The position numbers were made by a program, and so were the translations under genes. A DNA stretch of 9,750 nt from a virus (Duplodnaviria; Heunggongvirae; Uroviricota; Caudoviricetes). Positions 1,932-7,805 of this stretch are shown piece after piece. The stretch lies in the IMG/VR virus record IMGVR_UViG_2579778631_000016; one strand, written 5' to 3'. The notes under the pieces were generated by a model. The model worked only from the letters and a program-made list of their open reading frames with translations. It was not told where the DNA came from and made no database searches. The first letter of the stretch is position 1. The number at the start of each line of letters is the position of its first letter.

Positions 1932-2987
1932 TTAACCAATTTTGACGGTAACAAATTTGCGAATGTCTGCCGGCACCGGCTGCGGTGCGCTGTGCGTCTG
2001 CACGTACTCAATCGCCGGATCGCCGTCCTCAATCCAGTTTTTCGGGTAGTACATGTTTTGCGTTGCGCCCGTTCTTACCGCTTCCTGATCCATAATCGCA
2101 CCATAAGCAACCAGCCCTTTATTGTTGGTGTTGCCCAAGACCAGCAAATCAGGCTCAAGGAAATGTTTTTCGGTGCCGTCGCTGTCGGCGTATTTGCCGG
2201 AATAGACGATAAGGGCAATATCGCCCAGATAGCCTTTAAAGCTCACCACTTCGCCCAGGTTTTTACAGGCCAGTTCTGCGGCGGATTCTGAACCACGGGA
2301 AAGATCGTACAGTTCGCGGAATTTTTTAAAGCTGCGTAACGTGCGCCATACCTCAGCGCCCATAATCATGACGTTTGCGGGGCAATTGCCCTGATCCGCA
2401 TAAAGCTCGATATCATAGATTGGATCGTGGGTTTCTTTGTCCTGCTCGGACCATTTACGGCCTTTGGCCTGCTCTATGATGTTGTTTTCCGGCATCTTCC
2501 AGTCGATTTCATAGCGTTCTATGCCTTCGCCCTCAATGATGTTTTTTCCGGTCGTTACCGCATTTACCGCCAGCCATTCAACACGCGCTTTAATAGCGTT
2601 TACCTGGCGGCGCATGTTGCCAGTAATCAGGCGCATACGGCGATAGGTTGGGTCGTTAAGCTGTGCCGGATCTTCTCCAGCCATGCGCATGATGGTTTTT
2701 GTTGGATCGATTTCGTGCTTTGGCTTCATGTAGCCAGGTTTAATCGTGCTGGTTTCGTACCCTTTATCGCGCTGTACCTGGCTACCAACCATAGGCGAGC
2801 AAAACGCTGACATAGTGACTTCTTCGGTGTCCAGGTTATCCAGCATGATGTTTTGGGTGTTGAATGTCGCTACTTTCTGGAAAAACAGCGTGGTAAACAG
2901 CGGACTAAATTTAAATTCCGCAATATCCCCGCGATTCAGGTACGCAAAAAGCTGGTGAGTGTTAAGTGCCGTTGCTTTGCCTGCCAT
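1932..2987 (-). CDS. major capsid protein, lambda gpE family, 351 aa
   Basis: Several blocks match lambda gpE: EFKFSPLFTTLFF / KFKFDPLFLRLFF; PGYMKPKHEIDP / PGYVKPKHEVNP; EDPAQLNDPTYRRMRLITGNMR / EDPQNLADPAYRRRRIIMQNMR; GDIALIVYSGKY / GDVAIVVYSGQY; YPKNWIEDGDPA / YPKNWVTTGDPA. Start overlaps the upstream stop (TAATG). Confidence 0.9.
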   Translation of the reverse strand: MAGKATALNTHQLFAYLNRGDIAEFKFSPLFTTLFFQKVATFNTQNIMLDNLDTEEVTMSAFCSPMVGSQVQRDKGYETSTIKPGYMKPKHEIDPTKTIMRMAGEDPAQLNDPTYRRMRLITGNMRRQVNAIKARVEWLAVNAVTTGKNIIEGEGIERYEIDWKMPENNIIEQAKGRKWSEQDKETHDPIYDIELYADQGNCPANVMIMGAEVWRTLRSFKKFRELYDLSRGSESAAELACKNLGEVVSFKGYLGDIALIVYSGKYADSDGTEKHFLEPDLLVLGNTNNKGLVAYGAIMDQEAVRTGATQNMYYPKNWIEDGDPAIEYVQTHSAPQPVPADIRKFVTVKIG

Positions 2988-3193
2988 TATTCACCCCCAT
3001 AATTTTTATGCATCCCAAGCGCCGCAAGTAAATAAGAGCGTACAAGTGAACCTATCGACGGCTCCGGCGTCATCAGCGGATCCAGTCCAGCCGCCACGCC
3101 AGCCTCATAGTTTTTTTTGTGGCGCTGCTTGAGCACCTCCACGATTTCGGGGCTTATGTACACCGAAACACCGCCTTTTTTCTCTTCAGCCAT
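2987..3193 (-). CDS. hypothetical protein, 68 aa, first gene of capsid operon
   Basis: ATG at 3191-3193 with a GAGGAA Shine-Dalgarno; its stop overlaps the capsid ATG, indicating translational coupling. No family recognised. Confidence 0.55.
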   Translation of the reverse strand: MAEEKKGGVSVYISPEIVEVLKQRHKKNYEAGVAAGLDPLMTPEPSIGSLVRSYLLAALGMHKNYGGE

Positions 3194-3249
3194 AGTAAGA
3201 AATTCCTCTTCGACTTAAAAAATCATAACTGGATGTTCATCCAGCTCTG

Positions 3250-3277
3250 ATTATAATCATGATTGCATTTTGTGCAA
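3250..3277 (-). promoter_or_regulatory. sigma70-like promoter for the capsid operon (TTGCAC, 16 bp spacer, TATAAT)
   Basis: On the minus strand: -35 TTGCAC (3272-3277), 16-nt spacer, -10 TATAAT (3250-3255), about 55 nt upstream of the ATG at 3193. The -10 lies inside the perfect palindrome GATTATAATC and is flanked by TTGCA/TGCAA dyads. Confidence 0.45.
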
Positions 3278-3357
3278 TGATATTGAGTTGTGTTGCAAAT
3301 TGTGAAATGATTATCCCGATCATGTGTGTCAGTGCACCAAAAAGCCTCATATGCAAA

Positions 3358-3395
3358 AGCCCGATAAGCCACCTCTGACCTTATCGGGCTTTTTT
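3358..3395 (+). terminator. rho-independent terminator on the + strand
   Basis: agcccgataag-(11 nt loop)-cttatcgggct followed by TTTTT (3391-3395). No annotated + strand gene ends here, so it would terminate a short + strand transcript starting near the capsid promoter. Confidence 0.45.
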
Positions 3396-3519
3396 ATCTG
3401 CCTGCAAAGATGTCGAACAAAAATTAACCATAACCATCATCTTTTTTGCATCAAAACAATTAAAAACAATAAATTACGCTCATGATGATGATGACGATAA
3501 AATCACAAAAATGCGCTTT

Positions 3520-3570
3520 TTTCCGCGCCTCCCGCCCCGTGTTCAGGCCCACCCCGCCAGGAGGACCCGT
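3520..3570 (-). other. degenerate cos-like relic, copy C
   Basis: The minus strand reads acgggtcctcctggcggggtgggcctgaacacggggcgggaggcgcgg: a cosQ-like ACGGGTCCT followed by a decayed version of ttacgGGGCGGCGACCTcgcgg. Confidence 0.4.
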
Positions 3571-3592
3571 AAAAAAGCCGGATTGCTCCGGC
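3571..3592 (-). terminator. rho-independent terminator after the SSB gene
   Basis: Hairpin gccgga-ttgc-tccggc with an adjacent 6-nt U tract on the minus strand (A tract 3571-3576 on +). It is nearly identical to the terminator at 1130-1152. Confidence 0.55.
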
Positions 3593-3608
3593 TTCTGTCA
3601 CTCGTCGC

Positions 3609-6623: not shown

Positions 6624-6851
6624 TTATTCTCCGGTATGGGGCGAGTTATTATTCTCGTGAATTGCCATCACTGTATTTAATTCATTAATAACAGGCGTTA
6701 ATAGCGTACGCACGGCAGAAAACATCATTGAATCAGATTCATCGCCACTTTCCGGCACATCAATTAACTTAAGTAGTAATGCGTCCATTTCCTTTGCGCG
6801 GATTAATGCGTTTTCAGAATGAACAAGAACATCAAAGGGTATTTTATGCAT
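6624..6851 (-). CDS. hypothetical protein, 75 aa
   Basis: ATG at 6849-6851 overlaps the stop of the upstream 67-aa ORF (ATGCATAA); acidic, no family recognised. Confidence 0.55.
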   Translation of the reverse strand: MHKIPFDVLVHSENALIRAKEMDALLLKLIDVPESGDESDSMMFSAVRTLLTPVINELNTVMAIHENNNSPHTGE

Positions 6852-7047
6852 GACTCACCCCCTGGCGAATACGGGCAGCGAATACCATCACGCAGCCATC
6901 AGGAGATTGCTGACGCGCTTCCTGTTCGCTGGTGGCCTCAATGGTAATCACGCGCGGTTGTGCCGTGCTCAGGGCGATAAAACGCCAGATGTATTTATTC
7001 AGGTTGTGCGAGTCCCGCCCTTTCGGGTGTGTGGTATGATTTAACAT
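6844..7047 (-). CDS. hypothetical protein, 67 aa, first gene of leftward replication operon
   Basis: Internal ATG at 7045-7047 of the long 6844..7791(-) ORF, preceded by GAGGTAG at good spacing. The remainder of the 315-aa ORF is judged spurious. Confidence 0.5.
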   Translation of the reverse strand: MLNHTTHPKGRDSHNLNKYIWRFIALSTAQPRVITIEATSEQEARQQSPDGCVMVFAARIRQGVSHA

Positions 7048-7141
7048 AGCTACCTCGATACTCTTTCTATCGTTGGTGGTTAGAAGCCCGTTGGTGTTGG
7101 TAGCACCTGCGGGCTTTGTCTTTTCATCGATTACCTCAACA

Positions 7142-7225
7142 AAGGTGTCAGCCACTATACTAGTAACAGGTGTCAGCCACGTCAATAGTGTTTTTCCATT
7201 TTCTTGTGTGTATACTGTCAGCCAC
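7142..7225 (+). promoter_or_regulatory. three direct repeats of TGTCAGCCAC in the divergent promoter region (putative operator)
   Basis: aaaggtgtcagccac (7142-7155), acaggtgtcagccac (7166-7180) and tactgtcagccac (7213-7225). TATACT hexamers at 7156-7161 and 7211-7216 abut the repeats. Located just upstream of the RHH gene start at 7247. Confidence 0.5.
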
Positions 7226-7246
7226 CTAATAACAAGGAAATCAGAT

Positions 7247-7426
7247 ATGGCAACGAAAGCAGTTAATGGAAAATCCAAAAAACTTGAGGCACGAGTCCCC
7301 CATGCAATAGCTGACGCTGTAGAAAATTTAAAGGAAGAAGGCGAAAGCACTGGGCAATTTATCGTTTCGGCACTTGAAGGCGAGATCAAACGCCGCCAGC
7401 GCCGCAAGGCCAAAGAACCAGAGTAA
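7247..7426 (+). CDS. ribbon-helix-helix (Arc/CopG-like) DNA-binding protein, 59 aa
   Basis: ATG at 7247 with an AAGGAAA Shine-Dalgarno. KKLEARVPHAIADAVENLKEEGESTGQFIVSALEGEI fits a beta-strand / helix / loop / helix RHH pattern, and the basic tail is RRQRRKAK. The long N-terminal extension in the ORF track was rejected. Confidence 0.65.
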   Translation: MATKAVNGKSKKLEARVPHAIADAVENLKEEGESTGQFIVSALEGEIKRRQRRKAKEPE

Positions 7427-7483
7427 TCACCATCAGCGCCGTGGTGTAAGGTATTACGGCGCATTGCTATGCAGGACAACACA

Positions 7484-7657
7484 ATGACCGATAAAGAATT
7501 GACCAAAACATTATCACCGGCACGGAAAAGACGGCGCAGAAAGATAGAGCATGAATCAGAAAGATTCGCGCCATGTGCTTTTGCCCTTGAGCAATTCCTT
7601 AAAGAGTACAGGGAAAAGCGCTCATTGCAGGTATGGCAACGAACTGAACCAGACTGA
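7484..7657 (+). CDS. hypothetical small basic protein, about 57 aa
   Basis: Second ATG (7484) has an AGGA Shine-Dalgarno whereas the first (7469) does not. Contains ARKRRRRK. Followed by a terminator. Start is uncertain. Confidence 0.4.
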   Translation: MTDKELTKTLSPARKRRRRKIEHESERFAPCAFALEQFLKEYREKRSLQVWQRTEPD

Positions 7658-7752
7658 TTGCATTGCCCACCAGCCTGATAGCGGCTATCATCCCCGTGCT
7701 TATGTTTGGGATCATATACACATAAGGCGCAGCGGGTTAATTGTTCAGAAAG

Positions 7753-7779
7753 GCGGCTCCATATCGGGGCCGCTTTTTT
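7753..7779 (+). terminator. rho-independent terminator
   Basis: gcggctcc-atatc-ggggccgc followed by TTTTTT (7774-7779); lies between the convergent RHH operon and alpA. Confidence 0.55.
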
Positions 7780-7805
7780 CGTGTTTGTCATATCTGTGAT
7801 ACCCG

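Follow-up and report, generated by a model that had tools for sequence, protein, structure and literature searches.

The intergenic gap between the icd-like gene and ylcI in this phage-satellite island probably locks the operon for replication and packaging in two layers. One layer would be the small protein YlcI, which most likely represses both the icd-primase operon and its own gene; the other would be an antisense RNA read across the start of icd. Taken together, repressor and antisense RNA look like the repressor layer of Gram-negative phage satellites. A switch built on an RHH repressor and a cis-antisense RNA are known kinds of regulation, of which those proposed here are uncharacterised examples. 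The evidence lies in the sequence and its comparison with relatives: operator sites and their overlap with promoters, the fold of the protein, the co-variation of protein and sites, the strand-specific structure of the RNA, and the conserved −10 from which it would start.

What surrounds the gap? The window, meaning the whole 9,750-nt stretch of DNA that was analysed (IMG/VR contig UViG_2651869724_000017), is a phage-satellite island of Enterobacteriaceae, and all but two of its listed genes point leftward. These include an integrase gene (9750-8509, − strand), a gene for an AlpA-type HTH protein (8012-7806, −) and a leftward operon that begins with a 67-aa icd-like gene (6844-7047, −; NCBIfam NF033153, 70.4 bits against a cutoff of 25). 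Further leftward genes are orf75, DUF4222, a D5-type primase-helicase (6322-4574, −), SSB, and the lambda-type capsid E and decoration D genes. The gene ylcI, which encodes a 59-aa YlcI/YnfO-family RHH protein, the proposed repressor, runs the other way (7247-7426, +). Because ylcI starts at 7247 on the + strand and the leftward operon has its ATG at 7047, the divergent region that the preliminary description placed at 7048-7246 is exactly the intergenic gap. A long − strand ORF at 6844-7791, which extends the frame of icd across the control region and along the strand opposite ylcI, is spurious; in some genomes RefSeq places an Icd-like CDS, over-extended or marked as pseudo, over the operators (3989-4360 in L098, 3052-3438 in L003), an annotation that hides the putative intergenic switch. 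Downstream of ylcI, a 62-aa + strand ORF (7469-7657) is of ambiguous status; in relatives, RefSeq has a truncated − strand hypothetical gene or a Bro-zone pseudogene there instead. Of 5426 complete E. coli genomes, 1675 contain parts of the query region 6800-7700, with up to six matching places per genome.

Several features elsewhere in the island and its relatives are worth recording. Immediately upstream of the gene for capsid E lies a 68-aa ORF (2987-3193, −; beginning MAEEKKGGVSVYISPEIVEVLKQRHKK) whose pattern of strand and helix hints at a second small protein of the RHH type; it had no match in Pfam or NCBIfam. The stretch 3406-3575, which sits in the sole large non-coding gap of the island (3194-3608), has ~90% identity to unannotated DNA of lambdoid phages, Stx-converting phages among them, and is probably a cos/packaging site that the island has in common with helper phages. 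Near the left end of the contig, 315-493 shares 93% identity with a hypothetical gene found in Escherichia phages PhiR12_1 to PhiR12_5. In E. coli fS58a (L001), the island lies between two partial terminase large-subunit CDS of a Qin-like prophage (1-346 and 11159-12148), so it was inserted within a prophage late gene, a helper-embedded PICI layout that has been described before (PMC10111431). The int-alpA RNA motif (Rfam RF02996) occurs in a Pectobacterium island (L012, 347-413, −; 60.9 bits) and is absent from the window and from the E. coli loci searched with Rfam.

The gap contains a candidate promoter in each direction. PL, the predicted promoter of the icd-primase operon (7157-7185, −), consists of a −35 TTGACG (7185-7180), a 17-nt spacer and a −10 TAGTAT (7162-7157). 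It has 9 of 12 matches in the promoter scan, with an expected start near 7150, and its geometry (TTGAnn-N17/18-TAnnnT on the − strand) recurs in 51 of 58 distinct relatives. An A-rich tract upstream of the PL −35 (7186-7210, −), seen as a T-richness of the + strand that is conserved in the alignment, is a possible UP element. PR, the predicted promoter of ylcI, has the −10 TATACT (7211-7216, +) 30 nt upstream of the ylcI ATG; a TAnnnT stands 25-42 nt upstream of that ATG in 54 of the 58 distinct relatives, as TATACT in 36. PR has no recognisable −35 and was not called by the strict promoter/terminator scan. A Shine-Dalgarno sequence for ylcI, AAGGAA, lies at 7234-7239 (+).

Three direct repeats had been claimed for this region, two of them next to TATACT hexamers, and both observations hold. 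The + strand has exactly three perfect copies of the repeat TGTCAGCCAC (7146-7155, 7171-7180 and 7216-7225), spaced by 25 and 45 bp; one TATACT directly follows the first copy, O1 (7156-7161), and the other overlaps the third, O3, by one base (7211-7216). Of these hexamers, the second alone shows conservation as a −10 on the + strand. The first was considered as a rightward element and rejected, being the mirror of the PL −10 and not conserved on the + strand. With up to one mismatch allowed, the repeat has five matches in the window against 0.55 expected, a number that 0 of 200 shuffles reached; the two 1-mismatch copies (1497 and 3989), considered as extra operators, are both inside coding regions and were treated as chance. 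The repeat is longer than first stated, since O1 and O2 have 13 nt in common (AGGTGTCAGCCAC), and the relatives define its unit as an 11-bp near-palindrome, GTG-N5-CAC. O1 (GTGTCAGCCAC, 7145-7155) lies over the predicted PL start, just downstream of the PL −10. O2 (GTGTCAGCCAC, 7170-7180) lies in the PL spacer and overlaps the −35 by 1 nt. O3 (CTGTCAGCCAC, 7215-7225), which begins with C, overlaps the PR −10 and predicted start. All three are supported by exact repetition and by co-variation of their cores. The sites therefore overlap predicted elements of both promoters, as operators of a repressor would, and with O1 and O2 over PL and O3 on the PR −10, YlcI likely represses both the icd-primase operon and its own gene. 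In the alignment, the O2 junction CAC-GTCAA is kept in nearly all lineages. O1 is inverted in some lineages, with one copy inverted per such locus, and some lineages have a perfectly palindromic site, such as GTGGAATCCAC; both fit a two-fold symmetric binder. Cooperative binding is not evident because the spacings of 25 and 45 bp are off helical phase.

What kind of protein is YlcI? It matches the YlcI/YnfO family NCBIfam NF041551 at 61.9 bits (cutoff 30), with residues 9-50 aligned to positions 1-42 of the 42-position profile, and RefSeq gives its orthologues the same annotation. The AlphaFold2 monomer model (31 homologues, pLDDT 87) has an extended N-terminus, a helix at residues 19-28, a G-E-S-T turn and a helix at 35-56; this is the strand-helix-helix fold of the RHH (Arc/MetJ/CopG) superfamily, which spans ~45 residues. 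The model has no second or sensor domain, and its C-terminal helix is long and basic (EIKRRQRRKAK). Sequence searches gave less. The protein has no match to a Pfam RHH family, or indeed to any Pfam family, at E≤0.1; a profile search against PDB sequences returned nothing at E≤10; and Foldseek of the model against the PDB found no significant match. Alignment with hhalign paired YlcI 9-32, its strand and helix A, with Arc 6-29 in the expected register (E 8e-4, probability 24%). This places K12, E14 and R16 of YlcI on Q9, N11 and R13, the base-contacting residues of Arc. The earlier identification of the 59-aa product as an RHH protein is thus well supported by the predicted fold and weakly by sequence. 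A tblastn search of 50,697 phage records found no phage-encoded YlcI/YnfO homologue at E≤1e-3, and a small ORF beside the Qin-type terminase gene in L001, considered as a helper-encoded partner of YlcI, is unrelated. No functional work on YlcI/YnfO was found in the literature.

Is YlcI the repressor of the operon or only a modulator of it? Among the alternatives to a lock, the one that survives best, although unlikely, is that YlcI binds these sites and only autoregulates or fine-tunes, for example by limiting toxic Icd after induction in the manner of Arc, leaving AlpA as the only switch. RHH proteins such as Arc are turn-off regulators, and the lack of a sensor domain in YlcI would suit such a role. 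Transfer depends on AlpA, which also switches on its own promoter and, if over-expressed, brings about induction of the island (Fillol-Salom et al. 2018, PMC6092414), and its published behaviour is the same in the cf-PICI EcCIEDL933. Nevertheless, O1 and O2 lie over a near-consensus promoter core with an UP-like tract at the head of the replication operon, and the simplest way to read such a promoter is as one under a constitutive repressor. Moreover, ylcI is outside the PL operon, so there would be no Arc-type feedback. The data on AlpA do bear on the preliminary description, which saw in this region the master switch of the island, analogous to stl/str. That proposal is apt in position and is otherwise only partly supported, given the published need for AlpA in the induction of such PICIs and a candidate repressor that is a 59-aa RHH protein with no extra domain. 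Since over-expression of AlpA induces such islands, repression by YlcI, if real, must be bypassable.

The second layer of the proposed lock comes from an imperfect hairpin in the gap. The inverted repeat that had been noted at 7087-7119 exists, a few bases further left, with 13-nt arms at 7084-7096 and 7104-7116 that are 85% complementary. RNAalifold of 27 distinct variants predicts 14 pairs, and compensatory double changes occur in 11. On which strand does it fold? On the same pairs, the + strand has 322 WC pairs, 46 G·U pairs and 9 mismatches, and the − strand has 322, 1 and 54. The + strand fold is the more stable in 25 of the 27 variants (mean −23.2 versus −17.5 kcal/mol). In every lineage the + strand stem runs into a U-rich tract (UUUGUCUUUUC, with interruptions, in the window), and the − strand has no such tract after the hairpin. 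The hairpin is accordingly assigned as SL2, the terminator stem-loop (7084-7116, +) of a predicted antisense RNA of ~80 nt (7047-7127, +), composed of SL1 (7047-7082), SL2 with the terminator (7083-7117) and a U-rich tail to about 7127. This sequence has a minimum at −36.2 kcal/mol (MFE; z −6.0) on the + strand and −22.8 kcal/mol (z −3.8) on the − strand. Across 26 variants, the consensus fold comprises 21 pairs, with 95.6% of cells paired and 14 pairs showing double changes (shuffles, 7.6 ± 1.5; 0 of 500), as compared with 35-47% of cells paired in slid-partner controls. The 5-bp inner stem of SL1 compensates as CGAUA/UAUCG, CGUAA/UUACG, CAUUA/UAAUG and CGUUA/UAACG, and the 7-nt loop of SL1 is the complement of the first gene's Shine-Dalgarno sequence in most lineages. 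In the window, both the icd Shine-Dalgarno sequence GAGGT (7056-7052) and the icd AUG (7047) would lie beneath the RNA, which would end ~20 nt short of the PL start. We predict that 7047-7127 encodes a new cis-antisense RNA over these two elements.

The candidate promoter of this RNA, P_as, is an extended −10, TGgTATGAT (7032-7040, +), that lies within icd codons 3-5, ~45 nt upstream of the hairpin. Its TAnnnT is kept in 39 of 39 distinct variants in the form of seven hexamers (TATGAT, TATAAT, TATGCT, TAGACT, TACACT, TATCAT and TAATAT). The icd codon that it overlaps encodes His, Ser, Cys, Asp, Ile or Tyr, and the third base is always T, corresponding to the −11 A of the antisense hexamer. An amino acid that varies over an invariant TAnnnT points to a constraint at the level of nucleotides rather than protein. 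P_as, like PR, lacks a recognisable −35, and neither it nor the terminator was picked up by the strict promoter/terminator scan. Of the hallmarks of an antisense sRNA, then, a conserved strand-specific structure and overlap with the icd ribosome site are present, together with a −10 that is conserved without a −35 and a terminator whose U-tract is interrupted. A literature search found no antisense RNA at PICI icd genes. The stretch between the SL1 inner stem and the terminator (GTTGGTGGTTAGA, 7072-7084, +) is the best conserved part of the entire region across genera, with an invariant TGGT, and part of it pairs with GCYA at the 5′ end of the RNA; it could be a protein or Hfq contact, or mediate cross-talk between co-resident islands. 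Pairing of the hairpin loop GGTAGC (7100-7105) with GCTACC (7049-7054) near the ribosome-binding site was considered and dropped, as by eye it is not conserved in other lineages.

The same + strand structure could instead act by attenuation within a long leader of ylcI that starts at P_as, in which case the short RNA would be a terminated by-product and ylcI, not icd, would be regulated. The common orientation of P_as, SL1, SL2, the operators and ylcI is what such a leader would need, and PR has no −35. We consider this improbable in view of the conserved TATACT 30 nt upstream of the ylcI ATG and of the SL1 loop, whose complementarity to the Shine-Dalgarno sequence of the first leftward gene in most lineages points to the icd mRNA as the target. 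In addition, the operator/ylcI module recombines apart from the RNA/icd module. In six related loci (L026-L030 and L097), YlcI and the TCAGC operators are of the window type, but the first gene is a different one and the terminator is of the L002 type, indicating that the two modules recombine separately, with the breakpoint between the terminator and O1.

Slightly less probable again is a role for the hairpin in the leader of the leftward mRNA, where it could stabilise the message, attenuate it or serve as a diverged immunity RNA of the C4/CI type, with no separate antisense RNA. The icd context recalls c4-icd-ant of P1, matches to C4/isrK have been reported in some Gram-negative PICIs, and the − strand fold also beats shuffles (the z of −3.8 given above). 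The pairing record speaks against an icd leader structure, with 54 mismatches and a single G·U pair on the − strand against 9 and 46 on the + strand, as does the missing U-tract on that strand. A C4/CI-like RNA upstream of icd was rejected on the same strand test and on Rfam, which gave no family match, C4 (RF01695) and isrK (RF01394) included, at the gathering score or at E≤10 for 6900-7300 of the window, and no C4 or isrK match in 13 related loci. The hairpin thus has neither the position on the icd strand nor the covariance-model match that defines the C4/CI/isrK class, and a separate antisense RNA is the preferred reading.

A link between YlcI and its presumed operators comes from ~95 related loci collected from RefSeq E. 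coli, GTDB (Xenorhabdus, Limnobaculum, Pseudocitrobacter, Pectobacterium, Serratia and Rouxiella) and IMG/VR, all of which share the architecture. Within a locus, the N5 core is identical among the 2-4 copies of the repeat; between lineages it differs, and cores include TCAGC, TGGCC, TTGAA, TCGGA, AATCG, AACAC, TAAGA/TCTTA, TATTT/AAATA, CTTAG, GCACC and GAATC/GATTC. Each of 16 classes of β-strand (YlcI residues 11-18; ~93 loci) goes with one repeated core, for example KSKKLEARVP with TCAGC, KSQALKARVP with TGGCC, and KSQT[IV]AARVP with TTGAA. Residues 9-18 are the only part of YlcI that tracks the core: R16 never changes across the family, and it is positions 11-15 that vary with the operator. 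E. coli and Xenorhabdus YlcI are only ~75% identical, yet both KSKKLEARVP and TCAGC are kept; likewise, E. coli and Pseudocitrobacter keep KSQALKARVP together with TGGCC. These counts are not independent events because the loci share ancestry, a caveat that recombinant, mosaic islands mitigate. In one pair (L002 and L097), AlpA is 94% identical and the operator cores differ. The window and L002 have primases 90% and Icd proteins 93% identical, and their cores differ too. The window and L097, by comparison, share the core and a 95% identical YlcI, while AlpA is 22% and primase 33% identical. Hence the repeats belong to YlcI rather than to AlpA or a replication initiator, and the comparative evidence strongly supports the earlier suggestion that the RHH protein is the likely repressor acting at the repeats.

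It is very improbable that YlcI is a mere neighbour of repeats bound by another factor (primase or another initiator at iterons, AlpA, or a host protein): PICI origins are made of iterons and AlpA is a known regulator (PMC6092414), and direct repeats spaced by 25 and 45 bp could be iterons, but the repeats do not co-vary with the initiator as iterons would (cores differ at 90% primase identity and agree at 33%), the core tracks YlcI and not AlpA or Icd either, the variable protein positions are exactly those of the RHH β-strand, the sites sit on promoter elements, and published PICI origins are downstream of pri (PMC6092414).

How might the lock work? We infer that YlcI binds and represses, that the antisense transcript exists, and that helper phage or AlpA opens the lock. 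An RHH dimer of YlcI would read the 5-bp core of the three GTG-N5-CAC operators through its N-terminal β-strand (residues ~10-16). Bound at O1 and O2, it would turn PL off and silence icd, orf75, DUF4222, primase and the genes beyond; bound at O3, it would exert negative autoregulation through PR. Meanwhile, P_as would fire rightward from within icd, and transcription would stop at the hairpin and U-tract. The resulting RNA, fully complementary to the icd 5′ UTR, Shine-Dalgarno sequence and AUG, would block translation of icd. Through overlapping frames, this block should lower expression of the replication genes downstream, given that the icd stop overlaps the ATG of the next ORF (6851; 8-nt overlap) and that the DUF4222 and primase genes overlap by 4 nt. 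Blocking icd translation by c4 in P1 likewise depresses the operon. P_as and PL converge, so strong leftward transcription should occlude P_as. Its source may be derepressed PL or AlpA-activated read-through from the int/alpA side, antisense to ylcI, and occlusion would make the switch sharp. Read-through driven by AlpA would cross the operators, enter icd and meet P_as head-on, lowering both repressor and antisense RNA and freeing PL. Such read-through would make the published sufficiency of AlpA compatible with a repressor layer.

What would a lock of this kind mean for satellite biology? First, the putative switch sits at an acknowledged gap in the field: the global repressor of Gram-negative PICIs has been called unclear, and the contrast with Gram-positive islands a mystery (Fillol-Salom et al. 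2018, PMC6092414). A 2023 survey divides these islands into Integration, Bro, Replication and Late zones and reports C4/isrK RNAs in some of them, and this module is absent from it; a 2026 survey (PMC13612085) has YlcI/YnfO and Icd only as accessory genes without an assigned role. Second, the YlcI/YnfO family gains a concrete, testable role with mapped operators and promoters, and a new small RNA family is predicted at the entry of the replication operon. Third, at least 12 strand/core pairs form a natural protein-DNA recognition table, of use for RHH specificity and for orthogonal synthetic repressors. Fourth, the YlcI module is also found in a cf-PICI of O157:H7 (L097), whose gene content resembles EcCIEDL933, and in a PICI of strain 83972 (L098), which is UPEC-related, so the predictions can be tested in islands resembling EcCIEDL933 and EcCICFT073. 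PICIs are also being engineered as delivery vehicles (PMC10460865), and this control layer could matter for them. A bolder and rather doubtful extension is that YlcI is the missing Stl-equivalent that keeps classical and capsid-forming islands silent, with at least a dozen operator classes acting as immunity groups, and with ylcI silenced by AlpA-driven convergent transcription or by a helper factor, so that PL is freed and occludes a sar-like RNA promoter, which would make commitment bistable. If so, immunity groups would let several islands coexist in one cell.

Which known systems does this resemble? The best structural matches of the YlcI model are the plasmid and toxin-antitoxin RHH proteins CopG, omega, ParD and CopA_SO. 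Regulators of this type autoregulate via repeated short sites, and omega reads direct or inverted heptads, as the inversions of O1 recall; however, site length and consensus differ, YlcI has its long basic C-terminal helix, and there is no partner toxin or copy-control context. SaPI Stl/Str, and Rpr of Gram-positive PICIs, similarly form a divergent pair between the integrase and replication sides, with the repressor over the replication promoter. Stl, though, is a large HTH repressor with a domain for the helper inducer, whereas YlcI is a 59-aa RHH protein with neither the HTH nor the helper-protein-binding domain of Stl/Rpr master repressors, and no homology between the two was found. Gram-negative PICIs also need activation by AlpA (PMC6092414). 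The analogy with stl/str is therefore valid for position only. The immI region of P1/P7 (c4 RNA-icd-ant) and CI of P4 place an RNA repressor on the icd ribosome site at the head of an operon whose downstream genes are coupled to icd translation, an arrangement that is predicted here. C4 and CI, however, are processed from the strand of their own target and act through short complementary boxes, whereas the RNA here would come from the opposite strand, in keeping with the Rfam null result for C4/isrK.

The immI region of P22 has the RHH repressors Mnt and Arc, the divergent promoters Pant and Pmnt, and the antisense RNA sar. As proposed here, a small RHH repressor gene diverges from the controlled operon, operators overlap back-to-back promoters, and a cis-antisense RNA of ~70-80 nt, with its promoter in the downstream gene, covers the ribosome-binding site, the convergent promoters permitting occlusion. 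There are differences: immI has two RHH genes rather than one; its operators are of 21 bp (Arc) and 17 bp (Mnt) rather than three 11-bp GTG-N5-CAC sites; it controls an antirepressor rather than an icd-like gene leading into replication genes; and neither Pfam nor the PDB profile search found membership of YlcI in the family at the sequence level. P22 immI is nonetheless the nearest analogue in mechanism, and the layout of the region resembles it, with Mnt/Arc and sar, more closely than SaPI stl/str.
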